DNA of 64,000 bases from Candidatus Zixiibacteriota bacterium. GTDB lineage: Bacteria > Zixibacteria > MSB-5A5 > JAABVY01 > JAHJOQ01. Positions within the stretch are counted from its first letter, which is position 1, and every line of letters begins with the position of its first letter. The DNA lies in NCBI GenBank assembly GCA_018820315.1, contig JAHJOQ010000073.1:81281-145280 (forward strand), written 5' to 3'. Below the pieces are notes generated by a model. It worked only from the letters and a program-made list of their open reading frames with translations. It had not been told where the DNA came from and did not search any database. The translations under genes and the position numbers were made by a program. Shown here in pieces: positions 2 to 39,931 of this stretch.

Positions 2-1372
2 GTGATGACGGGACTCAAGAATGATATATTTGCTGCTCTGCTTGCTTGTGGCAGCGTCTACGAAGTAGGAGGATGCGTTCGCGACTCTCTGTTCGGGCGC
101 GATGTGTCTGAGAAGGATCGCGATTATCTCGTTACCGGAATCCCTATTGATGAACTCATAGCATTACTCGGGCGATTCGGCAGGGTTGATGTTGTCGGGA
201 AATCGTTCGGTGTGATCAAATTCACGCCGCGAGGCGATGGCGCGTCACCGGCTGCCACATACGACATTGCACTTCCGAGACGCGAATTCTCAACCGGCCT
301 AGCTCACAGAGATTTCGAAGTCGATTTCGATCACATGATCCCGGTTGAGGAGGATCTCCTGCGGCGCGATTTTACCATCAATGCAGTCGCGCGAGATATG
401 AAAACCGGAGCTTTGATCGACCCTGTCGGTGGTCAGCGAGACATTGCAACGCGAACGCTGAGGATGATCAGCCCTAATAGCTTCACTGATGATCCACTGA
501 GGATTCTCAGAGGCATTCAATTTGCGGCGCGATTCGATCTCACGATCGAAGCGGAGACGATGCGCGCTATGCGCGAGCATGCGGATTTGATCACAACTGT
601 AACGCCCGAGCGAATCGGTGAAGAGCTGAACAAACTTCTGACGAGAGCGAAGATGCCGTCAGTCGGTTTCCTGCTGATGCAGGAAATTGGTCTCCTCAAA
701 CTGATTCTGCCGGAGCTCCATGAGTCTGTCGGCGTCACGCAGCCGGGTGGATATCACGCGCACAATGTTTTCGAGCACTCACTCTATGCTGTCGATGCGG
801 CGATCCCGACTCTGCGTCTCAGGTGGGCGGCGTTACTTCACGATGTGACGAAGCCGCAGTCAATGTGCGAGGTCGAGGGCGGCGTCACATTTTACGGCCA
901 CGAGACAAGCGGTGCCAGAGTGGCAAAGAAGGTGCTGAGGCGGCTTCGCTATCCCAATAACTTCGTTACAGAGGTCGCCACTCTGATAGACCAACATATG
1001 TTTTCGATTCCACCCTCAGATAAGGGCCTCCGTCGGCTTGTGCGTCGAACCGGCATTGATCTGATTTTCGATCTGCTCGATCTCAGACGCGCTGATGTTG
1101 TCGGTCAGGGAATGGGCAACAAGACTGATGATGTAGACGAGTTCGAGAAGCGAATCAAAGAGGAACTGGATCGAAAACCGCCGTTTTCCGTCAAGGATCT
1201 TGCAATTGGCGGAGATGATCTGATGATGCTGTTCAATATTCCCGAATCACCGATCATCGGAGATATTCTTTCCCATTTGTTGGAGATCGTGCTGGATGAT
1301 CCTGAAAAGAATAAAGAAGAAATATTAGTAGAGACAGTCAAGGAATACTTGCATTCTGAGGAGACTCGATGA
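2..1372 (+). CDS. cca: CCA-adding tRNA nucleotidyltransferase (PolyA-pol head domain plus HD domain); 5' end may lie before the window
   Basis: N-terminal GGCVRDSLFGRD...DxD nucleotidyltransferase motif, RRDFTINA motif and C-terminal HD region (LLHDVTKP). The stop overlaps the sucC start (ATGA). Confidence 0.8.
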   Translation: MMTGLKNDIFAALLACGSVYEVGGCVRDSLFGRDVSEKDRDYLVTGIPIDELIALLGRFGRVDVVGKSFGVIKFTPRGDGASPAATYDIALPRREFSTGLAHRDFEVDFDHMIPVEEDLLRRDFTINAVARDMKTGALIDPVGGQRDIATRTLRMISPNSFTDDPLRILRGIQFAARFDLTIEAETMRAMREHADLITTVTPERIGEELNKLLTRAKMPSVGFLLMQEIGLLKLILPELHESVGVTQPGGYHAHNVFEHSLYAVDAAIPTLRLRWAALLHDVTKPQSMCEVEGGVTFYGHETSGARVAKKVLRRLRYPNNFVTEVATLIDQHMFSIPPSDKGLRRLVRRTGIDLIFDLLDLRRADVVGQGMGNKTDDVDEFEKRIKEELDRKPPFSVKDLAIGGDDLMMLFNIPESPIIGDILSHLLEIVLDDPEKNKEEILVETVKEYLHSEETR

Positions 1373-2505
1373 AAATTCATGAGTATCAGGCGAAGGATAT
1401 CTTTGCACGTCACGGTATCCCCGTGCCGCCGGGAGAAGTCGTGACGACGCCGGAGGAAGCAAAACGCGTCGCCGAGAAAATAGGCAAAGCAGTAATGGTG
1501 AAATCGCAGGTGCATGTCGGTGGTCGCGGGAAGGCGGGTGGCGTGAAATATGCCGAAAACCCCGAAGCGGCTTTCCAACATGCCAGCAACATCCTGGGTA
1601 TGGACATCAAAGGCCTGATAGTGAAGAAAGTGCTGATCACTGAGGCAGTCGATATCACTTCCGAGTCGTATGTCGGGATCATAATCGATAGATCGGCGAA
1701 GAAGCCTGTGTTCATGGTTTCTCCGGCAGGTGGAATTGACATTGAGCAGGTCGCCAAGGAGACGCCCGAGAGGATTTTCAAGCGGCATATCGATCCGCTT
1801 CTGGGAATGTCGATGTATGAGGCACGCGCGCTTGGATACAAGCTGTACGATGATCCAAAGCTGGTCAATCAGGCGGCGAAGATAATCCTGAAGCTGTATG
1901 AAGCTTTCATGGCGAGTGATGCATCTCTCGCTGAAATCAACCCTCTGATCACTACCTCGGAAGGTCAGGTGCTTGCGATCGATGCGAAGATCAACATCGA
2001 TGACAACGGGCTGTTCCGTCATCCCGACATCGAAGCACTTCGCGATATGGATGCCGAAGACAAATCTGAGATGGATGCGCGCGATGCGGGCCTGTCATTT
2101 GTCAAGCTCGATGGCAACATCGGATGCATCGTCAACGGCGCAGGTCTGGCTATGGCTACTATGGATCTGGTTAAGTACTACGGTGGTGATCCGGCCAATT
2201 TCCTCGACATCGGAGGATCATCGAATCCCGAGAAGGTCGTCAATGCAATGAAAATAATTCTGCGTGATACGAACGTAAGAGCGATCCTGTTTAACATATT
2301 CGGCGGCATCACGCGCTGCGACGATGTCGCGACGGGAATCGTTGAAGCGATCAACAGGCTGCAGCCATCAGTTCCGATCGTCATCAGGCTGACCGGGACC
2401 AACGAAGAAGAGGCTCGCAGGATTCTCGAAGAAGTTAAGCTACCCGCAGCTACATCAATGGATGAGGTCGTCCAGAAGGCGATAGAAGTTGCGGGAATAA
2501 ATTGA
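1369..2505 (+). CDS. sucC: Succinyl-CoA synthetase beta subunit (ATP-grasp)
   Basis: MKIHEYQAKDIFARHGIPVP N-terminus and ~378 aa length match SucC. Immediately followed by sucD. Confidence 0.93.
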   Translation: MKIHEYQAKDIFARHGIPVPPGEVVTTPEEAKRVAEKIGKAVMVKSQVHVGGRGKAGGVKYAENPEAAFQHASNILGMDIKGLIVKKVLITEAVDITSESYVGIIIDRSAKKPVFMVSPAGGIDIEQVAKETPERIFKRHIDPLLGMSMYEARALGYKLYDDPKLVNQAAKIILKLYEAFMASDASLAEINPLITTSEGQVLAIDAKINIDDNGLFRHPDIEALRDMDAEDKSEMDARDAGLSFVKLDGNIGCIVNGAGLAMATMDLVKYYGGDPANFLDIGGSSNPEKVVNAMKIILRDTNVRAILFNIFGGITRCDDVATGIVEAINRLQPSVPIVIRLTGTNEEEARRILEEVKLPAATSMDEVVQKAIEVAGIN

Positions 2506-2576
2506 CGTGGATGATCAAAAGAGATCAAATCGAATCGGCCAAATGAGGATTGTGGAACAAGAGGTCAGAGGTTAAC

Positions 2577-3755
2577 ATGAGCATATTCGTTGATGGAAAG
2601 ACTAAGATCGTTGTGCAGGGAATAACCGGTCGTGACGGTTCATTCCATGCGAAACAGATGAAGGAATACGGTTCAAAGGTCGTCGCCGGTGTAACGCCGG
2701 GCAAGGGCGGCCAGAATCTCGACGGCATTCCGATTTTTAATACGGTTGAGGATGCGGTGAGAGCGACCGGCGCCAACACTTCGGTGATTTACGTTCCGGT
2801 GGCGTTTGCAATCGATGCAATCTATGAAGCAGCAGATGCTGGCGCGAAGCTAATCGTCTGCATTACCGAGGGTGTTCCGGCGAATGACATGCTGAATGTC
2901 TACAATTATCTGAAGGACAAAGACTGCCGCCTTATCGGCCCGAATTGCCCCGGAATCATCAGCCCCGGCAAGACGAAAGTCGGCATCATGCCTGGTCACA
3001 TCAGCAAGCCTGGCAAGGTCGGAGTCGTATCACGCTCCGGCACGTTGACATATGAAGTCGTATACAATCTCACGCTCGCCGGGCTCGGTCAGTCGACCTG
3101 TATCGGAATTGGCGGCGATCAGATCATCGGGACGAATTTTATTGATTGTCTGGAAGCATTCCAGGCTGATCCGGCGACTGAAGCGATTGTCATGATCGGT
3201 GAGATAGGCGGCTCTGACGAAGAGGAGGCCGCTGCATACATCAAGAAGAACGTAACAAAGCCGGTCGTCTCGTTCATTGCGGGTCAGACTGCGCCTCCGG
3301 GGAAGCGCATGGGACATGCAGGCGCGATAATTTCCGGCGGTACCGGTACTGCTGCGGACAAGGTAAAGGCGTTGAATGCAGCCGGTATTCCAGTTGCTGA
3401 AACTCCGGCACAGGTCGCTACAGTCATGGCAGAGCTGATCGCAAAGTCCAAAGCGGCAAGAAAGAAGACTGCTAAGCCGGCAAAGAAGAAAGCAGCGAAG
3501 AAAACAGTCAAGAAGGTCGTGAAGAAAGTAGCTAAGAAGGCGGCTAAGAAGACTGTCAAAAAGGTTGCGAAAAAGAAGGCTGCAAAGAAGGCCCCCAAGG
3601 CTACAAAGAAAGTAGTCAAGAAGGTCTCAAAGAAGGCAGCGACCAAGAAGAAGTCTGTGAAGAAAGCTATCAAGAAAACTGCAAAGAAGATAACAAAGAA
3701 AACGTCCAAGAAGACGACCGCGCGCTCTCGTAAGACATCGGGCAAGCGCAAATAG
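2577..3755 (+). CDS. sucD: Succinyl-CoA synthetase alpha subunit with a ~103 aa C-terminal Lys/Ala-rich histone-H1-like extension
   Basis: The core (~289 aa) has the CoA-binding and citrate-lyase-like motifs ([18 protein letters not shown]). The tail is [18 protein letters not shown]... to the stop codon. The likely start is ATG at 2577 (MSIFVDGK), downstream of the track start at 2550. Confidence 0.9.
3444..3755 (+). repeat. Low-complexity imperfect tandem AAG/AAA-GCN-rich coding repeat encoding the SucD K/A-rich tail
   Basis: Visible DNA periodicity (aagaaggtcgtgaagaaagtagctaagaaggcggctaagaag...). The antisense ORFs on this stretch (Phe-rich) are artefacts of the repeat. Confidence 0.8.
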
Positions 3756-3773
3756 GCCGCCGGGAGTTTGCAA

Positions 3774-4055
3774 ATGACAGATAAACCGGAAAAAGCAGAA
3801 GAAAAGCCTCCAGAGAAGGTACAGACGGAGGCTGCGCCGGCCAAGAAGGGTAAAGGTGCTGGATCCGACGACCCTCTGACCATCTTCTACCACTGGTGTA
3901 AGGCGTGCAATATTTGCATAGCCTTTTGTCCTCAGAAGGTCTTCGAACCGGATCGAGATGGTAAGCCACAGATTGTACGTCCTCGGGATTGCTCCCAGTG
4001 TGCATTCTGTTGGCTGCACTGTCCTGACTTGGCGATAATTTCCAACGAGAAGTAG
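3774..4055 (+). CDS. korD: 2-oxoglutarate:ferredoxin oxidoreductase delta subunit (dicluster 4Fe-4S ferredoxin)
   Basis: Two CxxCxxCxxxCP motifs (CKACNICIAFCP; CSQCAFCWLHCP). Lies directly upstream of korA. Short K/E/P-rich N-terminus. Confidence 0.8.
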   Translation: MTDKPEKAEEKPPEKVQTEAAPAKKGKGAGSDDPLTIFYHWCKACNICIAFCPQKVFEPDRDGKPQIVRPRDCSQCAFCWLHCPDLAIISNEK

Positions 4056-4066
4056 AGGAGCGGCAA

Positions 4067-5224
4067 ATGAAGAGAGAAGTAAAACTGCTGCAAGGTAACG
4101 AAGCCTGTGTCGAAGGCGCTATCATGGCCGGCGTCCGCTTCTTCGGTGGATATCCCATCACACCCTCTACGGAAATCGCTGAGGGAATGGCGCGAAGACT
4201 GCCGCTGATCGGGGGACGTTTCGTCCAGATGGAGGATGAGATTGCCTCGATGGCATCGATTATAGGCGCATCATGTGCGGGTGTCAAGTCAATGACGGCG
4301 ACGTCGGGACCTGGCTTCTCGCTGATGCAGGAGAACCTGGGCTACGCATACATAACCGAGACGCCTACCGTGATCGTTGACGTTCAGCGGGGTGGCCCTT
4401 CGACAGGCCTCCCGACTAAAGTGTCTCAGGCAGATACGATGCAGGCCGGATTCGGGACTCACGGCGACTATTATGCGATTGCGCTGGCTCCGTCGAGCGT
4501 GGAAGAGATTCTGTATGCGACGATAGAGGCTGTGAATCTGTCTGAGACGTACAGAACGCCTGTGATCCTGCTGCTTGATGAAGTGCTCGCGCATATGCGA
4601 GAGAAGGTAGAGATTCCATTTCCTGACGAGATTCAGGTAGTGAAGCGTAAACGCCCTACGGTACCGCCGGATTGGTACAAACATTTTGCAATCTCGGCGA
4701 CCGGGGTTTCGGCGATGGCGAAGTTCGGTGATGGCTATCGCTTTAATATAACCGGGCTGACACACGATGAACTCGGATTTCCGACCGCGGTTCCTTCCGA
4801 AATCGCAGCCATGCTCGACAAGCTCAAACAGAAGATTGTCAAGAATGCTGAATTGACATGCCAGTTTGAGTACACCGAGATGGATGATGATCCAAATGTG
4901 GCTATATTCTCCTACGGGATCGTCGCTCGTGCAGCCAAGCAGGCCGTCATGATGGCCCGCGACCACAGGCTGAAAGTCGGTGCGATTCGACCCAAGGCAA
5001 TCTGGCCGTTGGCAGCAAACACCCTGCGAAAGCGGCTGAAAAAGGTTAGAAAACTGATCGTAGCTGAACTGAACCAGGGACAACTTATCAATCAGATCAA
5101 ACATCATGTGGACAGGCGGCACACCGAAATCATACCTCTTCAGAGATATGACGGTGAACTGATAACGCCCGCCCAGATTCTTCAAAAAGTCAAGGAGGTA
5201 AAGCATCATGGAACAGAAATCTGA
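4067..5224 (+). CDS. korA: 2-oxoacid:ferredoxin oxidoreductase alpha subunit
   Basis: The N-terminus (LLQGNEACVEGAIMAGVRFFGGYPITPSTEI) is typical of KorA/PorA. Confidence 0.9.
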   Translation: MKREVKLLQGNEACVEGAIMAGVRFFGGYPITPSTEIAEGMARRLPLIGGRFVQMEDEIASMASIIGASCAGVKSMTATSGPGFSLMQENLGYAYITETPTVIVDVQRGGPSTGLPTKVSQADTMQAGFGTHGDYYAIALAPSSVEEILYATIEAVNLSETYRTPVILLLDEVLAHMREKVEIPFPDEIQVVKRKRPTVPPDWYKHFAISATGVSAMAKFGDGYRFNITGLTHDELGFPTAVPSEIAAMLDKLKQKIVKNAELTCQFEYTEMDDDPNVAIFSYGIVARAAKQAVMMARDHRLKVGAIRPKAIWPLAANTLRKRLKKVRKLIVAELNQGQLINQIKHHVDRRHTEIIPLQRYDGELITPAQILQKVKEVKHHGTEI

Positions 5225-6047
5225 TGTAATTCATCGTTACCTCCGGCCGAAGAAGAAATTTCCGCATGTGTGGTGTTCCGGCTGCGGACTTGGAGTGATC
5301 CTCGGATCGCTGATTCGTTCGATCGACGCTCTGGAAATACCGAAAGACAATATTACAGTCTGTTCGGGCATTGGATGTTCGTCGCGTCTGCCGGTGTACG
5401 TCGATTTCAACACTCTGCACACCACGCACGGGCGTGCGATTGCTTTTGCAACGGGCGTGAAAGTCGCTAACGACCGTCTCAAAGTGATCGTAGTGACTGG
5501 TGACGGTGACTGCCTTGCAATTGGCGGCAACCACTTCATCCATGCCTGCCGCAGGAATATTGATATAACGGTGATTCTTGCGAATAACTGGATATACGGC
5601 ATGACAGGCGGTCAGTATTCGCCGACGACACCGACGACCAAGTTTGGCTCTACTGCGCCATATGGGAACCTCGAGCAACCATTCGATCCGGCCAAACTGG
5701 CGATTGCGTCGGGCGCTGCCTACGTTGCGCGCACGACGGTATATCACGTCGATCAGATGGACAAGATGATTAAAGGTGCCCTTGCTAAGAAGGGCTTCTC
5801 TGTCGTTGAGGTGATCTCGAACTGTCATACCTACTTCGGGCGCCTGAACCGCGCAGGTGATGCTGTCCAGATGCTCGACTGGATGAAGAAGCATGCCATG
5901 CCGATCCAGGCCGCGAGGAAGCTTCCTCCGGAGAAGATGGAAGGCAAGTTCGTGACGGGTCTCCTTCACGATGAAGAGAAGGATGAGTATTGCGAGAAGT
6001 ACGCTCGTCTGGTCGATGAACTTATGAACAAGTCTGGAGCGAGGTAG
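5208..6047 (+). CDS. korB: 2-oxoacid:ferredoxin oxidoreductase beta subunit (TPP-binding)
   Basis: CSGCG...GDGD TPP-binding motif (VVTGDGDCLAIGGNHFIHA). Overlaps the korA stop. Confidence 0.9.
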   Translation: MEQKSDVIHRYLRPKKKFPHVWCSGCGLGVILGSLIRSIDALEIPKDNITVCSGIGCSSRLPVYVDFNTLHTTHGRAIAFATGVKVANDRLKVIVVTGDGDCLAIGGNHFIHACRRNIDITVILANNWIYGMTGGQYSPTTPTTKFGSTAPYGNLEQPFDPAKLAIASGAAYVARTTVYHVDQMDKMIKGALAKKGFSVVEVISNCHTYFGRLNRAGDAVQMLDWMKKHAMPIQAARKLPPEKMEGKFVTGLLHDEEKDEYCEKYARLVDELMNKSGAR

Positions 6048-6051
6048 TACG

Positions 6052-6624
6052 ATGCCGGATAAAACCAAACATGCCGTCGGTTCCGACCGATTTGAGATAC
6101 GCCTTTCCGGCTCAGGTGGTCAGGGTCTGATCCTTGCCGGAGTCATTCTGGCTGAGGCTATAGGGACAATCGACGGGAAGAATGTCACACAAACGCAGTC
6201 CTATGGACCTGAAGCTCGTGGCGGAGCGTCGAGAGCCGACGTCGTTGTATCGAAAGATGAGATTTATTATCCTAAGACGATGAAGCTCGACTTGCTTCTT
6301 GCGCTGACTCAGGAGGCGTGTGACACGTATTTCCATGATCTGAAGGATGGCGGAATTTTCATGATTGATTCTCATATGGTGACACAGCCACCTACTCCCA
6401 ATTGCTATGGATTCCCGTTTGTGCAGCTTGCGAAAAGCGAGATCGGCGTTGCTATGGTAGCCAACGTAATTTCGCTCGGTGCAATATGCGAGCTGACAGG
6501 AATCGTTTCGAAGCACGCGTTGACGGAAATAGTAAAGAAACGTGCCCCGAGAGGAACCGAGGAGAAGAACCTCAAGGCTCTCGAGCTCGGATTCAAGATT
6601 GCGCGCGAATACAAGAACGCGTAA
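6052..6624 (+). CDS. korC: 2-oxoacid:ferredoxin oxidoreductase gamma subunit
   Basis: SGSGGQGLILAGVILAEA motif of the POR/KOR gamma family, ~190 aa. Confidence 0.88.
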   Translation: MPDKTKHAVGSDRFEIRLSGSGGQGLILAGVILAEAIGTIDGKNVTQTQSYGPEARGGASRADVVVSKDEIYYPKTMKLDLLLALTQEACDTYFHDLKDGGIFMIDSHMVTQPPTPNCYGFPFVQLAKSEIGVAMVANVISLGAICELTGIVSKHALTEIVKKRAPRGTEEKNLKALELGFKIAREYKNA

Positions 6625-6734
6625 GAAGCTGGAGCGATGGAGAAGAAGCTGCTGATAATCAAGCCTGATTTGACCGAGACTGCAAAGGCTGAGATATCGT
6701 TTTTCTTTGGAGATTTCTGAGACGGAATCAACGG

Positions 6735-7985
6735 ATGATGACAATTAGAATTCCATATGGCGACGACAAGCTGGAGATCACCGTGCCGGATGAACACTTT
6801 GGCGGATTGATCGAACAGAAGCGTCAGGTAGCTGCGAGGAACGTGTCATCTCTCATCAAGGATTCGCTCGCTGCTGATCGACTTGGAGAGTTTCTCGGAG
6901 ATTCGACCAGAGTTCTTGTTGTTGTGAATGACTCCTATCGGTGGACGCCATCGCATCTTGTGCTCGCGGAGCTGAGTCAATACTTGAGAAAGATTTCAGA
7001 CGTGCGATTAATCGTGGCAACCGGCCTGCACAGAAAGCCTACTGATTCCGAAATCGACAGGATTCTGGGAGATGGGTGCGATATTTCCCGGTCCGGGATC
7101 GCATACTCAGATGCGTACGACGCAGATCAATTCGACTGCATCGGCAAGTGGAGGAGCGGCAAAGATGTTCTTGTGCACAAGCTGTTCGGCTGGGCTGAGA
7201 AGGTGATTGTGATCAGCTCCGTGGAACCGCACTACTTTGCTGGTTTCTCAGGCGGCCCGAAGTCTTTTGTACCCGGACTCGCGCACAAGAGTACTATTGA
7301 AGCGAATCACTCTCTCGCTGTCAGCAGTGACTGCCAGCCTTGCATTCTCGAGGGCAACCCTTTTGCAGAGTCGCTCAGGGAGGCTGTCGATCTGCTCGAT
7401 TTGTCGAGAGTCTACGCGATTCAGCTCGTCTTGAACACGCACGAGGATGTTGTTGGCGTGTTCACCGGCGATCTGTGGAGCAGTTTCGGCCGGGCGGTCG
7501 ATTGCGCGAGATCGGTATTCGTCGAGAAAGTCGATCGTCAGTATCCGGTTGTAGTTGCAGTCAATTCGCCTCCGCTTGACAGGAATCTCTATCAGATGCA
7601 GAAAGTGTATGAGAATACGAAAGGTTTGGTGATGGATGGAGGTTCGATCATTGTCGTCTCGAAATGCCAGGAAGGCGTCGGCAATGATGAGTTCCTGAAT
7701 CTCGCCGCCAAGTATCCTGAGCCTCAGGATGTTCTTAACGCCAAGGTCGAGGGATGGAGTCTCGGTTTCCACAAGCTGTACAGAACTGCGTTGGCGAAGA
7801 AAAGAATCAGCATATTTGCCAAGACTGATGTCGATCCGGAAATTGTCCGACGTGTGTATCTCGATCCGATCGATGATCTGCAGTCGAAGATCAATGAAGA
7901 ATTAGAGAAGTTTGGAAAAGAGTCAAAGGTAATGTTTATATTGGATGCAGGCCATGTCGTTCCACACGTGGATCGGGCCGCATAG
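6735..7985 (+). CDS. LarA-family (nickel-pincer nucleotide-dependent) 2-hydroxyacid racemase/epimerase homolog
   Basis: N-terminal DUF2088-like region (IPYGDDKLEITVPDE...LVVVNDSYRWTP), GLHRKPT motif and HYFAGFSGGPKSFVPGLAHKSTIEANH. These match the LarA cofactor-anchoring Lys/His region (HYFAGFSGGRKS in L. plantarum LarA), recalled from memory. Confidence 0.65.
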   Translation: MMTIRIPYGDDKLEITVPDEHFGGLIEQKRQVAARNVSSLIKDSLAADRLGEFLGDSTRVLVVVNDSYRWTPSHLVLAELSQYLRKISDVRLIVATGLHRKPTDSEIDRILGDGCDISRSGIAYSDAYDADQFDCIGKWRSGKDVLVHKLFGWAEKVIVISSVEPHYFAGFSGGPKSFVPGLAHKSTIEANHSLAVSSDCQPCILEGNPFAESLREAVDLLDLSRVYAIQLVLNTHEDVVGVFTGDLWSSFGRAVDCARSVFVEKVDRQYPVVVAVNSPPLDRNLYQMQKVYENTKGLVMDGGSIIVVSKCQEGVGNDEFLNLAAKYPEPQDVLNAKVEGWSLGFHKLYRTALAKKRISIFAKTDVDPEIVRRVYLDPIDDLQSKINEELEKFGKESKVMFILDAGHVVPHVDRAA

Positions 7986-8009
7986 TATCAAACGGAACAG
8001 GAGGATTTC

Positions 8010-8942
8010 ATGCGAAGGAAAGTAGCAGTTATAGGAGCGGGTAACGTTGGTGCATCGGTTGCTCAGTATCTTGCTCAGAAGAACCTGTGCAACATAGTGC
8101 TTGTCGATATTCCCGAGAAAGAAGGCATGCCTGCCGGTAAGGCGCTCGATCTTATGCAGGCCGGTCCGATCGATAACTACGATTGCAGTGTAGTTGGTAC
8201 GTTCGACTTTGCGGAAATCAAGGATTCCGACATTGTCGTCGTCACATCCGGTCTCGCTCGCAAGCCGGGCATGTCTCGCGAAGATCTTCTCAAGGCCAAT
8301 GCAGCGATCATCAAATCTGTTTCTGAGAATGTTGCCAAGCACGCCCCCCAATCGATGGTCATCATGGTTGCGAATCCGCTCGATCTGATGACGTATCATG
8401 CCTGGAAGGTGACCGGATTCCCGACCAACCGCGTATTCGGTCAGGCCGGCATTCTCGATTCCATTCGTTTCCGTACGTTTGTCGCGATGGAGCTCGGCGT
8501 GTCCGTAAATGACACACAGGCGATGGTGCTCGGCGGCCACGGCGACACAATGGTACCGGTTCCGTCATACACGACCGTTGCCGGCATCCCGATCACTGAG
8601 TTGCTTCCTGCGGATCGCATCCAGGCTATCTGCGATCGCACCAGAACGGGTGGCGGCGAAATCGTCAAGCTGCTCAAGACCGGATCGGCATACTATGCTC
8701 CGGCGCGCGCTGCCGTCGATATGGTCGAGTCAGTTCTTTCAGATCGCAAGAGAGTTTTGCCATGCTCGGCGTACCTAACCGGCCAGTATGGTCTCAAAGA
8801 TGTCTACATCGGTGTCCCGTGCGTTCTCGGTGCCAACGGTGTAGAGAAGATCTTCGAACTCAAGCTCAGCGTAGCGGATCTTGAGCTTCTGCAGAAGTCA
8901 GGCAACACTTACAAAGAGCATCTGAAAGAGCTGGGATATTAG
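8010..8942 (+). CDS. mdh: Malate dehydrogenase (LDH-like, NAD-dependent)
   Basis: KVAVIGAGNVGASVA Rossmann motif, a catalytic His region and ~310 aa length. Confidence 0.9.
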   Translation: MRRKVAVIGAGNVGASVAQYLAQKNLCNIVLVDIPEKEGMPAGKALDLMQAGPIDNYDCSVVGTFDFAEIKDSDIVVVTSGLARKPGMSREDLLKANAAIIKSVSENVAKHAPQSMVIMVANPLDLMTYHAWKVTGFPTNRVFGQAGILDSIRFRTFVAMELGVSVNDTQAMVLGGHGDTMVPVPSYTTVAGIPITELLPADRIQAICDRTRTGGGEIVKLLKTGSAYYAPARAAVDMVESVLSDRKRVLPCSAYLTGQYGLKDVYIGVPCVLGANGVEKIFELKLSVADLELLQKSGNTYKEHLKELGY

Positions 8943-8965
8943 CTCGAATTGAAAGGAACCGCTGA

Positions 8966-10210
8966 ATGAATTACAAGATGTTGAAACCGCCGACCAACGG
9001 TGACAGAATCACTGTTGAAGGTGGTAAGCTGAATATACCAAACAAGCCAATTATCCCGGTGATCGAAGGCGACGGCATCGGGCGCGATATCATGAAGGCG
9101 ACTCGCAGAGTGGTGGATGCCGCTGTCGAGAAGACTTTCGGCGACGAGAAGAAAATCGTCTGGTTTGATGTCTATGCCGGTGAGAATGCGAATGCGAAAT
9201 ATGGCGAATGGATGCCGGAGGATACGTTCGATGCCATTCGTGAGTATATCGTTGCACTCAAAGGCCCGCTTACGACTCCGGTCGGTGGTGGATTCAGAAG
9301 CCTGAACGTGACACTTCGTCAGGTTCTCGAACTCTACGCCTGTGTGCGTCCGGTCAGATACTTCGAAGGTGTCCCATCGCCGGTCAAGCATCCCGAAGAC
9401 ATGAATGTCGTCATATACCGTGAGAACACCGAGGATGTCTATGCAGGTATCGAATGGCAGCAGGGTACGGCTGAAGTCAAGTCGGTCATCGATTTTCTGA
9501 ACAACACTTTCAAGTTGAACATTCGCGCCGATTCCGGAATCGGAATCAAGCCGATTTCGATCACGGGTACTGAGCGGCTGGTGAAAAAGGCGATCAATTT
9601 CGCGATCGACAAGAAGCACTCATCGGTCACGCTGGTACACAAAGGGAACATCATGAAGTTCACCGAAGGTGCTTTCCGTGACTGGGGATACAAGCTCGCA
9701 GCGCGCGAATTCGCAAACGAGACAGTTTCCGAGGATGATCTCTGGTCGAAATTCGACGGTAAAGCGCCTGATGGCAAGATCGTCGTCAAGGATCGTATTG
9801 CCGATTCGATGTTCCAGCAGATTCTGACCCGTACGAAAGAGTACGACGTTATCTGTACGCCGAACCTCAACGGCGATTATCTCTCCGATGCTTGCGCTGC
9901 GCAGGTCGGTGGGCTCGGTATGGCTCCCGGAGCCAATATCGGCGACCATATCGGACTGTTCGAAGCTACTCACGGCACTGCTCCGAAGTATGCCGACAAG
10001 GATATGGTCAACCCGGGATCGCTGATTCTCTCGGCTTGCATGATGCTCGAGTATCTCGGCTGGGATGATGCTTCGAAGAAGATATATGATGCAATTCAGG
10101 AGACGATCAAGAAGAAGACGGTAACGTATGATCTTGAGCGTCAAATGAGCGGTGCGACAAAGTTGTCGACTTCCGAGTACGGAACGCAGATCATCAAGAA
10201 TCTGAAGTAG
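8966..10210 (+). CDS. icd: Isocitrate dehydrogenase (NADP-type, homodimeric)
   Basis: N-terminus [28 protein letters not shown] and C-terminal [19 protein letters not shown] motifs, 414 aa. Confidence 0.93.
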
Positions 10211-10241
10211 CCCCCTATTTCGAACTTGTTCGATATAGAGC

Positions 10242-10280
10242 GCCGACCGGTCTTGTACCGGTCGGCGTTTCTTGTTTGTG
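10242..10280 (+). terminator. Rho-independent terminator after icd
   Basis: GCCGACCGGTcttgtACCGGTCGGC hairpin followed by gtttcttgtttgtg (T-rich). Confidence 0.7.
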
Positions 10281-26505: not shown

Positions 26506-26997
26506 GTGGGGGGACGCAGGTCTCCCGTAATGGGAGGCCTGCATTTCCTCGGCTGGGACATCATGGTATCGTTGGCATTTCAGGGACGATTTGCCGGACT
26601 TGTGTCCTTTGGCAAAACAATCGGAATATTGCTTCTTGTAATATTTCTTGCGGCCTCATTTGTGCTCGAGCGCTATCACATCGCGCGCGTGGCAATCGAC
26701 AGCGGACGACTTGAAGGCGAAGTCAAACAACTCCACAAAAACAAGGCGTATCTTCAATCTCAAGTTTCCCAACTTGAGTCGCTCGATCATGTCGGTTCAG
26801 TCGCAGCCGAGAAATTCGGACTCGGCATCCCGCATCCCGATCAAATAGCCTGGCTCACAGATTCGGTCTTGGGTTCCTCACAAGGCCGGTCTGTCCTGAC
26901 GAGAGCCATAAACCGCATCGGCTATCTGTACGCGGGTTTGAAGGTGCCATCAGTCGTGCGTTCGAGCGCGGCCGCAAATGTGAGGACATCAGAGTGA
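26506..26997 (+). CDS. ftsL: Cell division protein FtsL (single TM plus coiled coil); start uncertain
   Basis: Lies between rsmH and ftsI. Has one TM (ILLLVIFLAASFVL) followed by a heptad-rich segment (GEVKQLHKNKAYLQSQVSQLESL). Confidence 0.6.
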   Translation: MGGRRSPVMGGLHFLGWDIMVSLAFQGRFAGLVSFGKTIGILLLVIFLAASFVLERYHIARVAIDSGRLEGEVKQLHKNKAYLQSQVSQLESLDHVGSVAAEKFGLGIPHPDQIAWLTDSVLGSSQGRSVLTRAINRIGYLYAGLKVPSVVRSSAAANVRTSE

Positions 26998-29060
26998 AGA
27001 AGCCAAAGATCTCGACCAGACGGCTGGCGCTAATGTTCGTACTCGTCACGCTAGGCTGGTGCGCGATCATGGCTCGCTTCGCTCAGGTCCAGATTCTTGA
27101 AGGCGCACGGTACGATGAACTCGTCATCAGGCAGTGCTGGGGTGAATTCGAGCTCTCCGCCAAGAGGGGCGCCATCTATGACTGCAACGAGAACCTACTA
27201 GCGTTCGACGTTCCATCAGAATCTTTCTATACATATGCTGCAGGCAGACAGCATCTCCGTGAAATAGGCAAGCGAGTTGGCTACCTGGCAGGCGATCCCG
27301 CCATGACCGAACGAATCATCATCAGGCCCGGCAAATTCAACTGGCTTGTACGCAGAGCAGATCCCAAACTCGCGGACGAAATCAAATCGTTGGATATGGA
27401 CAGCGTGCGATTTCACTCGGAATTCAAACGAACCTATCCCTACGGATCTCTTGGAATGGATCTTATTGGGCAGGTGGACGCTGATCATTCCGGCATTTCC
27501 TGTCTCGAGATTGCATACAATGGACTTCTGAAGTCCACTCCCGGTATCGCGACATTTCAAAGAGATGGCCGGGGCAAGGTCTACCGCATCTCCGATGCTC
27601 CCCTTGTGCGCCCCAAACCTGGCGCCGATCTGAAGCTGACGCTGGATTATGAATATCAGCAGATACTCGAAGAGGAGTTGAAGAAGGCCGTTTGCAAGTG
27701 GAACGCCAAATCCGGCATCGCAGTGTTCGTTGAAGTCTCGACCGGACGAATACTCGCCGCCGACTGCTATTCTCCAGTCGATGAGAATGCAGGTAGTGAA
27801 CAGATTTTTAAGACCAGGATCGTGACTGATCTGTTCGAACCTGGTTCCACTTTCAAGCTGGTCGCGTTCGCGGGAATGATCGAGGAGAAACTCTTTTCTC
27901 TCAATGATACGATGTGGGCCGGAATGGGCGAGTTTAGGTTCAACGGTCGTACTATGCATGATGACAAGAAACTGGGAACGATCACATTCAGGAGGGCGTT
28001 TGAGCTCTCCTCGAATATAGCAACCGGCAGGTTCAGCCAGACACTATCCGGAAAGCGCCTTTACAAATATGCCCGGCTTTTCGGTTTCGGTCAGCCGACC
28101 GGTACCGATCTGCCCGGTGAGCAGAGAGGGCAGCTTGCCAAGCCGAGAAGATGGAACGAGTTTTGGACGGCGCAGATATCGATAGGCCACGGGGTGTCGG
28201 TGAACGCCCTGCAGCTCGCCTCTGCATTTGCCGCGATCGCCAACGATGGTGTGCTTATGAGGCCGTATCTGGTCGAGGAGATCAGAAATGAGTCAGGCAG
28301 AGTGGAGGAGAAGTTTCAGCCGCATGCTGTCAGACGCGTTGTGTCAAAGGAGACAGCGGCGACAATGCGCGATTTGATGGGTGGCGTTGTCGACTCCGGC
28401 ACTGCACAGGTGGCCCGCATCGAAGATGTCCCGTTTTCCGGAAAAACAGGGACTGCACAGAAGCCTGATCTTGAAAATGGCGGATATTTCTGGGACAAGT
28501 ATATGGCAGGATTCGGAGGCTTCTTCCCGAGGGAAAATCCGCGAATCGCAGGAGTAGTCATAATCGACGAACCTCAAAGAGTTCACTACGGAGGCTACAC
28601 CGCAGCACCAGTGCTCGCAGAATTCGCGCGAAGAACAACCCTTCTCGAAAAAACTCGCAAGAACTGGGCGAAGGAGAATAGTAAAGCCGATGCGGCCGAC
28701 ACGCGCGTCACCGAGCGCAGCAAAGACAACAGCATTGACAACCCGGAGGAGGAGAGTCGAAGCATGGCAAGTTCAATGAGCCTTCAGGAATCACTCGCAT
28801 GGTTATCGAAGCCTTCAGAGACGCTCAGTTCCCCGTGTAACCGGCAACTGCTGAAGTGCAGAGAACAGATGCAGTCAGGCATTCTGCCGGACATGAAGGG
28901 ATTGTCTGCGCGTGACGTTGTGATTCTGCTCCAGGACCTCAATTGTAGAATTTCTGTGAGCGGCAGTGGCAGGATAGAGAGTCAGGTGCCGAGCGCAGGT
29001 TGCAGGATAGCTGACATAGAGACTGTATCGCTTGTGTGCGGATCAAATAGTGGAGGCTGA
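26994..29060 (+). CDS. ftsI: Peptidoglycan D,D-transpeptidase FtsI (PBP3)
   Basis: PBP dimerisation domain plus the transpeptidase motifs STFK (GSTFKLV), SSN (SSNIATG) and KTG (GKTGTAQK). Confidence 0.9.
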   Translation: MKKPKISTRRLALMFVLVTLGWCAIMARFAQVQILEGARYDELVIRQCWGEFELSAKRGAIYDCNENLLAFDVPSESFYTYAAGRQHLREIGKRVGYLAGDPAMTERIIIRPGKFNWLVRRADPKLADEIKSLDMDSVRFHSEFKRTYPYGSLGMDLIGQVDADHSGISCLEIAYNGLLKSTPGIATFQRDGRGKVYRISDAPLVRPKPGADLKLTLDYEYQQILEEELKKAVCKWNAKSGIAVFVEVSTGRILAADCYSPVDENAGSEQIFKTRIVTDLFEPGSTFKLVAFAGMIEEKLFSLNDTMWAGMGEFRFNGRTMHDDKKLGTITFRRAFELSSNIATGRFSQTLSGKRLYKYARLFGFGQPTGTDLPGEQRGQLAKPRRWNEFWTAQISIGHGVSVNALQLASAFAAIANDGVLMRPYLVEEIRNESGRVEEKFQPHAVRRVVSKETAATMRDLMGGVVDSGTAQVARIEDVPFSGKTGTAQKPDLENGGYFWDKYMAGFGGFFPRENPRIAGVVIIDEPQRVHYGGYTAAPVLAEFARRTTLLEKTRKNWAKENSKADAADTRVTERSKDNSIDNPEEESRSMASSMSLQESLAWLSKPSETLSSPCNRQLLKCREQMQSGILPDMKGLSARDVVILLQDLNCRISVSGSGRIESQVPSAGCRIADIETVSLVCGSNSGG

Positions 29061-30519
29061 AATCCGACTCAATGATTTGATAAGTGTGCTTCCCGTCAAG
29101 GAAGTCATCGGCTCCGATACTATCGAAATCGGCAAGATCGAATACGATTCTCGGGAGATCGAGCCTGACGATGTCTTTGTCGCTCTTGTCGGCGCGAATG
29201 TCGATGGTCACGATTACATATCTAATGCAGTGGACAAGAAGGCAGCATGTCTTGTGGTGGAGAGGACGCCCGATACGCACGCGTCCGTTTGCGTGACGGT
29301 ACCGGATACTCGTGAGGCACTGGCCCTTCTGTCGGCGAAGTACTACGATTACCCTTCCCGGCAAATGAAGACCCTTGCTGTGACCGGCACAAATGGGAAA
29401 ACGACAGTGACGTATCTGATCAAGTCCATATTCGAGGAGCGCGGTCGCAGAATCGGTTTGATTGGCACTATAGAATATCTCACGGGTGAGCATAGGATAA
29501 GCGCAGTCAACACGACACCGGAGTCTCTGCAGTTGGAGCGCCTCCTGATGATTATGAAGAGTGAGCGCATTCGGACAGTCGTTATGGAAGTGTCGTCCCA
29601 TGCCCTGGTGGCAGGACGCGTCAGGATGATCGATTTCGATGTGGTTGGGATTACAAATCTCACGCAGGATCATCTCGACTTTCACAAGACTATGCAGGAA
29701 TACAGAGACGCGAAAGCCACTCTCTTCGATATGGCTGCCGGTGATGACAAGTGGGCGGTGCTAAACTTGGATGATTCAGAATATGAGTTCTTTCGGGCAA
29801 GAGTGAAGTCACCTTATCTGTCGTACTCCATCTCCGACCGTCAGGCTGATTTGTCTGCAACTGATATTCGCACCAGTCCGACAGGATCGAGTTTTCACCT
29901 GATTACGCCCCTTGGTGAGGAAGATATCGCCTTGAAACTCGCAGGTGAACACAATGTTTCGAACGCGGTCTGCGCGGCGGCGTTCGCGATGGCTGCCGGA
30001 ATGGACATTGGCGCGATTAAACGCGGTTTAGATGAAGCATCGCACGTACCGGGCCGGCTTGAGCCCATTGAAAATGACCGGGGAATTCACATATTCGTCG
30101 ATTACGCTCATACGCCCGATGCACTCGAACACGCTTGTTCTGTCTGCAGAAGTTTAACCGAAAGCAAGCTGGTAGTATTGTTCGGATGTGGCGGAGACCG
30201 AGATAAATCGAAACGAAAGCTGATGGGTGAGGCTGTCTCCCGATACGCTGATCGAATCGTTGTGACCTCGGACAATCCTCGCTCGGAAGATCCACTGGCT
30301 ATTATAGAAGAGATCAAACCAGGTCTCGATTCAGCGGTTCATGCTGACATTGTCCCGGATAGAAAAGAAGCCATCAAGGCAGCTCTAGATAGCTGCTCCG
30401 AGAATGATGTGTTGCTTGTTGCCGGCAAAGGTCACGAAGACTATCAGATAATCGGCAAAACGAAAACTCACTTTGATGACCGCGAAATTGTTCGCGAGTT
30501 GTTAAGAAAGAATGCATGA
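29032..30519 (+). CDS. murE: UDP-MurNAc-L-Ala-D-Glu:meso-DAP ligase
   Basis: Mur ligase P-loop (VTGTNGKTT) and a DNPR motif (DNPRSEDP), 495 aa. Confidence 0.9.
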   Translation: MCADQIVEAEIRLNDLISVLPVKEVIGSDTIEIGKIEYDSREIEPDDVFVALVGANVDGHDYISNAVDKKAACLVVERTPDTHASVCVTVPDTREALALLSAKYYDYPSRQMKTLAVTGTNGKTTVTYLIKSIFEERGRRIGLIGTIEYLTGEHRISAVNTTPESLQLERLLMIMKSERIRTVVMEVSSHALVAGRVRMIDFDVVGITNLTQDHLDFHKTMQEYRDAKATLFDMAAGDDKWAVLNLDDSEYEFFRARVKSPYLSYSISDRQADLSATDIRTSPTGSSFHLITPLGEEDIALKLAGEHNVSNAVCAAAFAMAAGMDIGAIKRGLDEASHVPGRLEPIENDRGIHIFVDYAHTPDALEHACSVCRSLTESKLVVLFGCGGDRDKSKRKLMGEAVSRYADRIVVTSDNPRSEDPLAIIEEIKPGLDSAVHADIVPDRKEAIKAALDSCSENDVLLVAGKGHEDYQIIGKTKTHFDDREIVRELLRKNA

Positions 30520-31910
30520 TACGCGCTGAATTTGATACCATCGCTCGAATCATTAGCGCTGTTAGATCTGAAGGCAGGCTCTCCGGAGTCTCTTTCACGG
30601 GTGTATCGATCGACAGTCGGACAATCCGGGAGGGAAATCTCTTCGTGGCGGTCGCAGGCAAATCTGAGGATGGTCACAGGTTCATCCCGGATGCAATCAA
30701 GCGCGGCGCGGCAGGGATCATCGCCAAGGCAGACTATGAGTATGATCCGGGCGAAAAGGGTGTAGTATTTTTCGCGGTTGAGGATACTCTCGAAGCCTTG
30801 CTGAAACTGGCCGCGTGGTGGCTTTCCAGATTCGAACTGAAGAAGATCGCTGTTACGGGCACGAACGGCAAGACCACGACAAAGGAAATGATTGCCGCAA
30901 TCCTCTCGCGACTGCACTCGGTGTATCGATCACCCGGCAACTTCAACAATCTGTTCGGAATACCGCTTTCTATTTTCGAGATGGAAGGAAGTTATGACTT
31001 CGCTGTATTCGAGTTCGGCATGAGCACCACTGGCGAGATTGCACGGTTGACCCGAATCGTGCAGCCGCAATACGGCCTCATCACCAACATCGACGCAGCC
31101 CATCTGGAGACAATGTTGAGTGTCGACGCCATCGCAGCAGCGAAATTCGAACTTTTCGACAACATGCCTTCCGATGGCACAGTCTTCATCAATCTTGACA
31201 ATGATTATCTCCGGCGGCGATTCGATACAGAGAGACACGAAAAGTATGGATTCGGGGTTCATAGCAGAACGGGTTTCTCACCTGATAGATTTGAAATCAA
31301 TGGTTCAGGCTGCGCGAGATTCGAGCTTGAAAGCATCGGTGAGGTGCATTTGGCTATGCCGGGATTGCACAGCCTTTACAACGCGATCGGCGCTGCAGCG
31401 GTCGCGCATTATCTGAAGATTCCCGGGCGTGAGATCAAGGCGGCGCTCGAATCGTTCAGATCGGTAGAGATGAGAATGGAGACGTTCACGGTCGCCGGTG
31501 TATTGATCATCAATGATTCGTATAATGCCAATCCGAATTCCATGAAATATGCGCTCGATACGCTCGAATCCATCAACGCGAGGGGGCGGAAATTCGCAGT
31601 GCTCGGCGATATGTTCGAGCTCGGCGTGACCGAATCCGAGCTGCATCGTCAAGTGGGAGCTCACGCCGCGAAATCAGGTCCCGACTTCCTCATTACGTGC
31701 GGCGATCGTGCCAGAGATATCTCTGCGGCCGCAGTCGAGATGGGATATCCCTCGGACGCTACAAAGCACTTCGCGAACGTGAATGACGTTACCGAACATC
31801 TTCTTGCAAGATTGCACTCGGGCGATGCCGTGCTCATTAAAGCATCACGCGGAATGGCTTTCGATCGCATCACTACGGGATTGCAGTCGCAACTCGGGAG
31901 GAGCAACTGA
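30516..31910 (+). CDS. murF: UDP-MurNAc-tripeptide:D-Ala-D-Ala ligase
   Basis: VTGTNGKTTTKEM P-loop; Mur ligase family; position after murE. Confidence 0.88.
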   Translation: MIRAEFDTIARIISAVRSEGRLSGVSFTGVSIDSRTIREGNLFVAVAGKSEDGHRFIPDAIKRGAAGIIAKADYEYDPGEKGVVFFAVEDTLEALLKLAAWWLSRFELKKIAVTGTNGKTTTKEMIAAILSRLHSVYRSPGNFNNLFGIPLSIFEMEGSYDFAVFEFGMSTTGEIARLTRIVQPQYGLITNIDAAHLETMLSVDAIAAAKFELFDNMPSDGTVFINLDNDYLRRRFDTERHEKYGFGVHSRTGFSPDRFEINGSGCARFELESIGEVHLAMPGLHSLYNAIGAAAVAHYLKIPGREIKAALESFRSVEMRMETFTVAGVLIINDSYNANPNSMKYALDTLESINARGRKFAVLGDMFELGVTESELHRQVGAHAAKSGPDFLITCGDRARDISAAAVEMGYPSDATKHFANVNDVTEHLLARLHSGDAVLIKASRGMAFDRITTGLQSQLGRSN

Positions 31911-33001
31911 TGTTCTACCATCTCCTGTATCCATTGACCGACTCCGTATCGTTCTTCAATCTCTTCAAGTACATCACATTCAGGAGTGCCGGTGCCATTT
32001 TGACTGCGCTCATTGTGAGTTTGATTTTCGGGCCGCTCTTCATACGCGTGCTGAAAGGCAGGGGGGTGAAGGAGACGATTCGGCAGGAGGGACCGAAATC
32101 GCACTATGCCAAGGAAGGCACACCTACAATGGGAGGGATCATCATCCTTGCTGCGATCATAATTCCGACATTGCTCTGGGCCGACCTGACGAACCGGTTT
32201 ATACAGTTGATTCTCTTCGTGACCGTGTGGATGGGAGCAATCGGATTCATGGATGATTATATGAAGGCGATACTCCGGCATCCGAAGGGCATGGTTGGCA
32301 AATACAAATTGGCTGGCCAGGTGATCTGCGGCTTGATTCTCGGTCTTGTGCTGTACTATTATGCTCCGTTTCCGACATTCGGAACCACCACGGAGATACC
32401 TTTCGTCAAAGACTACATTCTCAATTTCAGTTCGGTGATCGTCTTTGTGCCGTTCGTTGTCCTCGTAATAACGGGATCATCGAACGCGGTCAATCTTTCG
32501 GACGGGCTCGACGGGTTGGCAACGGGTCTCTGTGGGATCGCGTTTGTTGCATTTGCAGGTTTTGCCTATGTGAGTGGGCGTAACGATTTCTCGCAGTACC
32601 TGCAGATCATGTATCTCGAAGGCGCAGGCGAATTGACGATATACTGCGCTGCAACGATGGGCGCAGCGCTCGGCTTTCTCTGGTACAACTCGCATCCGGC
32701 GGAAATATTCATGGGTGACACGGGCGCGCTGGCACTCGGAGGAGCGATGGGCGCGATCGCGATAATGCTCAAAAAAGAACTCTTGCTTCTCATTGTCGGA
32801 GGCGTCTTCGTCGCCGAAGCGCTTTCTGTGATATTGCAGGTGTCATCGTTTAAGCTGCGCGGCGTAAGAATATTCAAGATGGCGCCATTGCACCATCATT
32901 TTGAACAATTGGGATGGCCGGAAACCAAGGTGGTTACGCGCTTCTGGATAATTGGTGTGATTTGCGCTTTGCTGACGTTGGCGACGCTCAAAGTGAGATA
33001 G
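31910..33001 (+). CDS. mraY: Phospho-N-acetylmuramoyl-pentapeptide transferase
   Basis: MraY motifs (GTPTMGG; NAVNLSDGLDGLA; HHHFE), 363 aa. Confidence 0.93.
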   Translation: MFYHLLYPLTDSVSFFNLFKYITFRSAGAILTALIVSLIFGPLFIRVLKGRGVKETIRQEGPKSHYAKEGTPTMGGIIILAAIIIPTLLWADLTNRFIQLILFVTVWMGAIGFMDDYMKAILRHPKGMVGKYKLAGQVICGLILGLVLYYYAPFPTFGTTTEIPFVKDYILNFSSVIVFVPFVVLVITGSSNAVNLSDGLDGLATGLCGIAFVAFAGFAYVSGRNDFSQYLQIMYLEGAGELTIYCAATMGAALGFLWYNSHPAEIFMGDTGALALGGAMGAIAIMLKKELLLLIVGGVFVAEALSVILQVSSFKLRGVRIFKMAPLHHHFEQLGWPETKVVTRFWIIGVICALLTLATLKVR

Positions 33002-33009
33002 AGTCTGAT

Positions 33010-38677: not shown

Positions 38678-38689
38678 CAAAAGGAATAC

Positions 38690-39922: not shown

Positions 39923-39931
39923 GAGGGATGT

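Follow-up and report, generated by a model that had tools for sequence, protein, structure and literature searches.

Why does an enzyme of the tricarboxylic acid (TCA) cycle end in a hundred residues that resemble the tail of a linker histone? This question is raised by the sucD gene of a Candidatus Zixiibacteriota bacterium, which lies in a stretch of 64,000 nucleotides from contig JAHJOQ010000073.1 (this whole stretch is referred to as the window, and positions are counted from its first letter). The gene encodes the succinyl-CoA synthetase alpha subunit (SucD). A first, sequence-only reading of the window had pointed out that a full-length SucD core of 289 residues continues, with no intervening stop, as a tail of about 103 residues that begins at nucleotide 3444. 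The analysis described here confirms this, as there is one open reading frame (ORF) and the family model PRK05678 ends at residue 289. The tail is a genuine, translated and selected extension of SucD that is characteristic of Zixibacteria. It is judged somewhat probable that it serves as a disordered, polycationic tether that would attach the enzyme to a cellular polyanion.

The N-terminal part of the protein leaves little room for discussion. By its sequence it is a true SucD, and each of the four features that define the family and were tested was found. PRK05678 (NCBIfam) aligns with residues 1-289 over model positions 1-289 of 291 with 458 bits (cutoff 336), and TIGR01019 scores 450 bits (cutoff 353). 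E. coli SucD (1jkj) aligns with residues 2-283 (E = 8e-112), including the MGHAGAII phosphohistidine loop, and Pfam places the CoA_binding domain (PF02629) at residues 8-99 and the Ligase_CoA domain (PF00549) at residues 151-270. The phosphohistidine of the GHAGA motif, H247, and the residues that flank it are invariant across 33 relatives. The gene begins with an ATG at 2577 and ends with a TAG at 3753-3755. The core has a pI of 5.7 and a net charge of -3, and the beta subunit, SucC, has a net charge of -10. The alpha-beta pair has a net charge of about -13 without the tail and +39 with it, and the pI of the whole SucD protein is 10.1.

The tail itself is made up of 48 Lys, 19 Ala, 11 Thr, 10 Val, 6 Ser, 4 Arg, 2 Pro, 2 Ile and 1 Gly. 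This corresponds to 47% Lys and 18% Ala with no Asp or Glu, a net charge of +52 and a pI of 12.0, so the histone H1-like composition claimed by the earlier reading is borne out. The lysines follow a four-residue period, xxKK, with an autocorrelation of +0.61 at lag 4 and -0.66 at lag 2. The imperfect AAG-rich repeat that had been described in the underlying DNA is also found. Tandem Repeats Finder reports rows at 3485-3550, 3486-3563 and 3534-3592, the arrays in the tail have 63-72% matches, and AAG accounts for 37 of the 48 Lys codons. The arrays with periods of 12 and 24 nucleotides are a substrate for in-frame changes in tail length. AlphaFold2, run with an alignment of 33 sequences, models the SucD core with confidence; the last core helix (277-298) reaches about nine residues into the tail, and residues 310-392 have a pLDDT of about 40 and no assigned secondary structure. 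A Pfam search of the tail at E <= 10 returned noise only, with no match to the linker histone, Hc1 or Hc2 families. When the tail alone was used in a homology search, none of 8,000 word-sharing candidates passed the composition-corrected scoring of HMMER, and Rfam gave no RNA family within or beside the repeat. Two weak stem-loops with 5-bp stems that the terminator scan placed on the minus strand (3703-3716 and 3807-3819) are treated as chance matches. An antisense ORF of 199 residues opposite the conserved sucD frame was likewise rejected as a gene; it is the reverse complement of the AAG repeat, that is, a mirror artefact.

Several lines of evidence show that the tail is real. The exact 392-residue protein is recorded from five contigs, with JGI and ENA sources among the records. 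Assembly support across the repeat had been named as a point to be checked, and the sucD gene is base-identical over 1179 of 1179 nucleotides to the Logan assemblies of SRR6514730 and SRR10598173, which are independent runs. In P0002/L083, a relative that is 97% identical in the core, the tail is shorter, with 89 residues compared with 103 in the window. The two tail DNAs differ by indels of 24 and 18 nucleotides (at about 3454-3477 and 3579-3596), both in frame, as well as by substitutions, and their final 100 nucleotides or so are identical. The earlier statement that a frameshift can be ruled out therefore holds, given the identical DNA in independent runs, the purely in-frame indels in this relative and conservation across the phylum. 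Long poly(A) tracts in Lys codons are prone to ribosome slippage. Runs of six or more A are rarer than chance in 60 Zixibacterial tails, with 122 observed against 152.9 +/- 6.5 when the Lys codons are shuffled. The longest A run in the window tail is 5, which is shorter than expected both when its Lys codons are shuffled (P = 0.045) and when they are drawn at the AAG:AAA usage of the genome (P = 0.0045). Such a depletion would be expected of a Lys tract that is translated and under selection against ribosome slippage.

A comparison of SucD lengths in related genomes, which had also been proposed, reveals fused basic tails on nearly all complete SucD proteins of the Zixibacteria clade. A search with the full-length protein listed 120 clusters of 323-451 residues; those that are named belong to candidate division Zixibacteria or GN15. 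Basic tails of 34-162 residues are present in all but one of the 120, that is, in 119. Because this search is word-based and could favour tailed proteins, it was repeated in a tail-blind manner. The 289-residue core alone was compared with the species-representative genomes of GTDB, which gave 80 loci whose ORFs were read to the stop. Among the loci that group with Zixibacteria and have a complete 3' end, all but one carry a basic tail of 19-132 residues. Some loci of this clade are labelled Ignavibacteria or Calditrichota in their records. The subclade nearest the window has tails among the longest seen.

The single exception, L033, has a 9-residue stub. Comparison with its sister L032 (6860-6870) shows that a GC-rich palindromic insertion of about 123 bp at the junction of core and tail (L033:6858-6985) brings in a stop codon. 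The K-rich remnant that follows, KLKKKSTKKREKRPDVKRTKKV..., is still recognisable and carries a 1-nucleotide deletion that shifts its frame. As judged from these sequences, the absence of the tail in L033 is a secondary loss. The insertion itself resembles a small REP/MITE-like element. The only other tailless locus with more than 70% core identity, L049, is labelled Melioribacteraceae (Ignavibacteria) and falls outside the Zixibacteria clade, beside the tailed L069. In L049 the gene directly after sucD is ndk (L049:4343-4800), an arrangement that recalls the physical association that has been reported between succinyl-CoA synthetase and Ndk. The idea of a separate small basic gene downstream of a tailless sucD was rejected, as the remnant in L033 is a severed tail and the downstream gene in L049 is ndk.

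What has been conserved in these tails is not their sequence. Zixibacterial tails cannot be aligned with one another beyond their composition, and yet presence, reading frame and extreme composition are retained throughout the phylum, down to about 70% core identity. The 119 tails pooled (9,662 residues) contain 43.4% K, 20.4% A, 12.7% T, 5.7% V, 4.6% R, 4.2% S, 3.2% P and 2.8% G. Asp and Glu together make up 0.9%, compared with 9.3% in the cores; bulky hydrophobic residues and aromatic ones are nearly missing (L 0.4%, I 0.7%, M 0.2%, Y 0.1%, F 0.0%, W 0.0%), and His and Cys are essentially absent. Acidic residues are purged, since they stay at 0.9% when a single transition is enough to turn K into E. 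Arg- or Glu-rich tails, which correspond to the other frames of the AAG repeat, were not seen in the Zixibacteria clade. As far as can be read from these comparisons, selection preserves the frame and the positive charge and keeps acidic residues out, leaving the sequence itself free to change, and the tail grows and shrinks through the in-frame gain and loss of repeat units of the 12-nucleotide type.

Basic tails on SucD also occur outside Zixibacteria. All four Eisenbacteria loci have K/R/A-rich tails of 60-64 residues, one Ignavibacteriaceae locus has a basic tail of 59 residues, a Steroidobacteraceae locus has an Arg/Ala-rich tail of 85 residues, and a gammaproteobacterial metagenome-assembled genome (L070) has a tail of 58 residues. 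A core-only search started from the gammaproteobacterial protein showed that the last case is one of many. In an uncultured gammaproteobacterial clade (L070; P0271-P0356), 73 of the 120 nearest clusters, at about 85-97% identity, have K/R/A/G tails of 26-62 residues with 0.4% Asp and Glu and a typical ending GRGRR. Their tailless relatives, which include Nevskiales and Stenotrophobium (84-87% identity), have SucD proteins of 288-294 residues. In a rough neighbour-joining tree of the cores, tailless Nitrospina, Planctomycetota, Omnitrophota, Desulfobacterales, Dehalococcoidia and Cloacimonadota separate the tailed groups. The gain of tails was convergent, as the tailed gammaproteobacterial clade nests among tailless relatives. 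Judged by these sequences, there were clearly at least two independent gains, one in Zixibacteria and one in the gammaproteobacterial clade, and probably four. A further core-only search, against representatives at 50% identity, is unsuitable for counting lineages, as its top 150 are mostly fragments, fused proteins and predictions with frameshifts; basic tails were present on two (P0121 and P0126) of 25 representatives that were looked at.

What might such a tail do? The explanation regarded as somewhat probable is that it is a selected, disordered tether to polyanions, namely DNA, RNA or polyphosphate. The otherwise acidic SucCD pair would gain through it a strong, sequence-independent electrostatic affinity for chromosomal DNA, for RNA or ribosomes, or for polyphosphate, and the tail would localise or concentrate succinyl-CoA synthetase on such a scaffold. 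It would act in the manner of the C-terminal domain of linker histone H1 and of the Lys-rich tails of AlgP, PhaF, HupB, Ku and topoisomerase I. The tail has the features of a polyanion-binding region, with a charge of +52 over 103 residues, no acidic residues and a pLDDT of about 40. In prokaryotes, low-complexity regions rich in Lys are a typical feature of proteins that bind DNA or RNA, and low-complexity regions are under-represented in metabolic enzymes (PMC6821194). Lys-rich regions also drive RNA condensates (PMC6606616).

One close likeness is to the C-terminal domain of linker histone H1. That domain has about 100 residues with about 40% Lys, alongside Ala, Thr/Ser, Pro and Val, and acidic residues are nearly absent from it. 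It is disordered, as is predicted for the SucD tail, and it changes rapidly in sequence under a constraint on composition. It binds polyanions electrostatically and independently of sequence, a property that would be shared by the SucD tail if the analogy holds. There are also differences. H1 has a winged-helix globular domain that places it on nucleosomes, whereas the folded part of SucD is a metabolic enzyme, and the globular H1 domain (PF00538) had no Pfam match on full SucD (E <= 0.1) or on the tail (E <= 10). Only 2 of the 103 tail residues are Pro and there are no S/TPKK motifs, and the similarity in composition is not homology.

AlgP and PhaF of Pseudomonas resemble SucD in having a folded N-terminal part followed by a long, disordered Lys/Ala repeat tail with a variable number of repeats. 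Tails of this type bind DNA or RNA or associate with granules of polyphosphate or PHA. AlgP binds DNA through its Lys-rich C-terminal domain and is associated with polyphosphate granules (PMC9239181), and the disordered region of PhaF binds RNA (PMC12818456). Their repeat unit is KPAA, with 25% Lys and rich in Pro (according to the description in PMC9239181), in contrast to the xxKK unit of the SucD tail with 47% Lys and little Pro, and tandem KPAA repeats (or KPVA, KTAA) were not found in the window tail by direct reading. AlgP and PhaF have dedicated structural or regulatory roles, SucD is an enzyme of central metabolism, and no sequence homology between them has been demonstrated. The actinobacterial proteins HupB/MDP1, Ku and topoisomerase I have Lys/Ala tails of the PAKKA/KAAK type that, like that of SucD, sit on a conserved fold and are restricted to a lineage. 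These actinobacterial tails modulate DNA binding or processivity (PMC3553676; PMC9760754; Strzalka et al. 2017, as cited in PMC6821194); in Ku it is DNA binding that the PAKKA tail modulates (PMC3553676). These hosts bind DNA already, however, whereas a polyanion-binding tail would add a new property to SucD. The chlamydial proteins Hc1 and Hc2 (PF07432 and PF07382) are Lys/Ala-rich bacterial polycations like the tail, but they are stand-alone condensers of the nucleoid. Precomputed matches to PF07382 exist on the tails of 2 of 120 relatives (P0056 and P0074) and are probably compositional. On sequence grounds, the SucD tail does not belong to the H1, Hc1/Hc2 or AlgP/PhaF families: the globular domain of H1 is missing, no profile matches and the repeat unit is another one. 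By analogy, it would probably work like their Lys-rich domains.

There is also a precedent for enzymes of the TCA cycle on a genome scaffold. In yeast, Kgd1/Kgd2, aconitase and other TCA enzymes reside in mitochondrial nucleoids, and the precedent extends to the modification of Lys-rich DNA-binding proteins by succinyl-CoA made nearby (PMC8477199). These enzymes differ from SucD in that they use folded surfaces or partners and have no appended polycation, and the setting is a eukaryotic organelle. The comparison leads to a more speculative addition to the tether model, which is regarded as improbable in itself. The tail places 48 lysines on the enzyme that makes and consumes succinyl-CoA, and succinylation turns +1 into -1 at each site, so that succinyl-CoA at high levels could progressively neutralise the lysines of the tail and free the enzyme from its polyanion scaffold. 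Succinyl-CoA synthetase would then belong to the nucleoid, the RNA pool or polyphosphate granules in a manner that metabolism can switch. Such a switch would couple TCA flux to the organisation of the chromosome or of RNA, or to the localisation of the enzyme. Succinyl-CoA is a reactive agent that acylates lysines non-enzymatically, and the excess of Lys over Arg in Zixibacterial tails (43% vs 4.6%) would fit such a switch. For the Lys-rich proteins Abf2 and TFAM, succinylation by succinyl-CoA in vitro is inhibitory to DNA binding (PMC8477199). Against the switch, the Arg-rich tail of Steroidobacteraceae and the K/R tails of the gammaproteobacterial clade suggest a generic polycation.

A number of points weigh against a polyanion tether. 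Composition alone does not distinguish between DNA, RNA, polyphosphate, acidic proteins and anionic lipids as partners, and the tail matches no curated DNA-binding family in Pfam. Tail length ranges from 19 to 162 residues, so any function must tolerate large changes in valency, and the tail is dispensable at least in L033, the one Zixibacteria species representative that lost it. There is no obvious reason that ties the chemistry of succinyl-CoA synthetase to nucleic acids. Zixibacteria are also uncultured.

It could be, instead, that the tail recruits small anions or acidic proteins and not nucleic acids. It would then concentrate the anionic substrates of the enzyme (CoA, succinyl-CoA, ATP/ADP, succinate) or dock acidic partners, such as 2-oxoglutarate:ferredoxin oxidoreductase, ferredoxin or Ndk, to form a metabolon in which succinyl-CoA is channelled. 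Electrostatic channelling between TCA enzymes is an established concept. The conserved TCA cluster has korDABC directly downstream of sucCD, the cores of SucC and SucD are acidic (-10 and -3), and a tail that recurs in four lineages on SucD in particular suggests a link to the chemistry of this enzyme. However, the Kor subunits are neutral to basic (KorA +2, KorB +8, KorC 0 and KorD 0 in the window) and would be poor partners for a polycation. Tails are also kept where no kor gene was detected in the fetched flanks (up to about 6 kb), as in L026, L048, L050 and L057, and likewise in the Eisenbacteria loci, L070 and L072. A charge of +52 over 100 residues far exceeds what is needed to steer substrates, and recruitment of this kind is considered unlikely.

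It is likewise unlikely, and slightly more so, that the tail is a non-adaptive or generic appendage, produced by slippage of the AAG repeat and either tolerated or used as a solubility bristle or spacer without a specific partner. Such an origin would agree with the imperfect tandem repeat in the DNA, with a highly variable length that is altered by indels of repeat units, with the lack of sequence conservation and with the loss in one lineage. Against it, presence, frame and composition are maintained across a phylum, and Arg- and Glu-rich tails from the alternative frames are not seen in the clade. A generic spacer would accept D, E, Q, N and G, but acidic residues are held at 0.9%. The gammaproteobacterial tails are encoded differently, being K/R/G-rich, and are again purely basic, and slippery A runs are avoided.

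Is the tail a peculiarity of SucD or a habit of the genome? The sequence-only reading had suggested that the lineage tends to bolt basic low-complexity tails onto housekeeping proteins, with PyrR and MotB in the same window as further cases, and this part of it is not supported. The N-terminus of MotB, PIIIKKKKGGHGGHHGGAWKVAYA (55015-55119, minus strand), which had been taken for an added basic stretch, lies within the canonical MotB model PRK09041 (positions 3-281), and MotB was therefore rejected as a further tailed example. PyrR does have 19 S/K-rich residues past its family model (61340-61396, minus strand). In the closest relative, L084 (76% identity), the extension is PTEPTVSKTAPQITSRKRK, which is S/T/P-rich and not K-rich, and the other 79 of the 80 relatives compared have no extension and end within 0-8 residues; PyrR was rejected as a second case, the extension being short and not conserved. 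Two more features could be counted in favour of a genome-wide tendency. An ORF at 62429-64000 (plus strand), which runs past the end of the window and has no NCBIfam match, has a short basic start, AKKKSKKAAEGEQKPRSSKPP. KorD has an N-terminal low-complexity extension of about 34 residues before its 4Fe-4S domain, MTDKPEKAEEKPPEKVQTEAAPAKKGKGAGSDDP (3774-3875, plus strand), which is rich in K, E, P and A and of mixed charge, not polycationic.

The broader counts are against such a tendency. No K-rich tract comparable to that of SucD occurs elsewhere in the 64-kb window; SucC, KorA, KorB and KorC are without one, and none was found in the 2,822 ORFs of 590 kb of unrelated metagenomic loci. Across about 0.8 Mb of sucD flanks from 80 genomes (3,346 ORFs of at least 60 residues), a long K-rich tract is present in 61 ORFs, of which 58 are SucD and the other three are short out-of-frame ORFs. 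Unrelated phyla have also gained tails on SucD. On these counts, a general habit of Zixibacterial housekeeping proteins is improbable. The sequence comparisons argue that the tail goes with SucD and not with the genome. Its benefit would be enzyme-specific, as SucD acquired tails of this kind independently in other lineages as well.

A tether to the membrane is very unlikely. The tail would bind anionic phospholipids at the inner membrane face, for example near electron-transfer complexes. Polybasic stretches bind acidic lipids in many systems, and the xxKK period of four could align charges on one side of a helix; however, the tails are almost without the large hydrophobic or aromatic residues that membrane-targeting amphipathic helices need, and AlphaFold2 predicts no helix past residue 298. 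Finally, an artefact (a frameshift, a mis-assembled repeat, or the fusion of sucD with a separate gene for a small basic protein) can be set aside almost entirely, for although assembly errors are frequent in repeats and L033 has a stop between its core and a K-rich remnant, the 1179 nucleotides are identical in two independent runs, the tail is in frame in nearly all species representatives of the clade and in 119 of the 120 listed protein clusters, and the state of L033 is derived (the 123-bp insertion, then the frameshift of the remnant) and not an ancestral two-gene arrangement.

The features of the locus are collected in the table below. The PRK00696 model covers residues 1-375 of SucC with model positions 1-385 of 388, and the sucC-sucD pair is present in most of the fetched loci. 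The assignment of the kor genes is supported by the Pfam domains POR_N, TPP_enzyme_C and POR, and the NCBIfam matches to delta-subunit and ferredoxin models are all below their curated cutoffs. 2-Oxoglutarate:ferredoxin oxidoreductase makes or uses succinyl-CoA. The first gene of the TCA cluster, cca, encodes the CCA-adding enzyme, and the cluster is closed by the first strong terminator-like hairpin on the plus strand (10238-10270, 14-bp stem). The order cca-sucC-sucD-korDABC-larA-like-mdh is kept in most Zixibacteria loci. Elsewhere in the window, a run of same-strand ORFs at 26994-41086 (plus strand), the last member of which ends FtsZ-like, is probably a division and cell-wall (dcw) cluster as judged by gene order. 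A large-type bacterial signal recognition particle RNA (50950-51215, minus strand, 170 bits) and a tRNA-Ala (CGC) (52496-52571, minus strand) are also present.

Table. Positions of sucD, of the parts of its product and of neighbouring features in the 64,000-nucleotide window
Feature	Position	Strand	Remarks
TCA cluster cca, sucC, sucD, korD, korA, korB, korC, larA-like, mdh, icd	2..10270	+	all genes on the same strand
sucC, SucC beta subunit, 378 aa	1369..2505	+	without extension; PRK00696, 523 bits
sucD, complete ORF, 392 aa + TAG	2577..3755	+	core, then polycationic tail, in a single frame
SucD catalytic core, residues 1-289	2577..3443	+	PRK05678, PF02629, PF00549, GHAGA motif
Polycationic C-terminal tail, residues 290-392 (103 aa)	3444..3752	+	predicted disordered; xxKK period 4
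Imperfect tandem repeats, periods 12 and 24 nt (AAG AAR GCN GYN type)	3485..3592	+	encode xxKK units
Second short array, period 12 nt	3672..3703	+	Tandem Repeats Finder; inside the tail
Antisense ORF, 199 aa, F/L-rich	3284..3883	-	opposite the conserved sucD frame; CTT/TTC codons
korD-korA-korB-korC, 2-oxoglutarate:ferredoxin oxidoreductase	3774..6624	+	directly downstream of sucD, same apparent operon

No paper on a Lys-rich SucD or on tails of this kind in Zixibacteria turned up in the literature library that was searched. For the annotation of metagenome-assembled genomes, the result means that SucD lengths of 320-450 residues are real and that such proteins should be neither trimmed nor flagged as fusions. 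The tail will be invisible to trypsin-based metaproteomics. Bacterial H1-like Lys-rich tails are known on proteins that handle DNA or granules, such as HupB, Ku, topoisomerase I, AlgP and PhaF, and an enzyme of the TCA cycle is an unexpected host. In Zixibacteria a charge of up to about +50 has been placed on a core TCA enzyme, its composition has been conserved across a candidate phylum, and equivalent tails have arisen convergently elsewhere. Such a pattern suggests that attachment of succinyl-CoA synthetase to a cellular polyanion brings an unrecognised advantage on which selection can act. This advantage may lie in the spatial organisation of central metabolism, in a second role in the nucleoid or in the formation of condensates.

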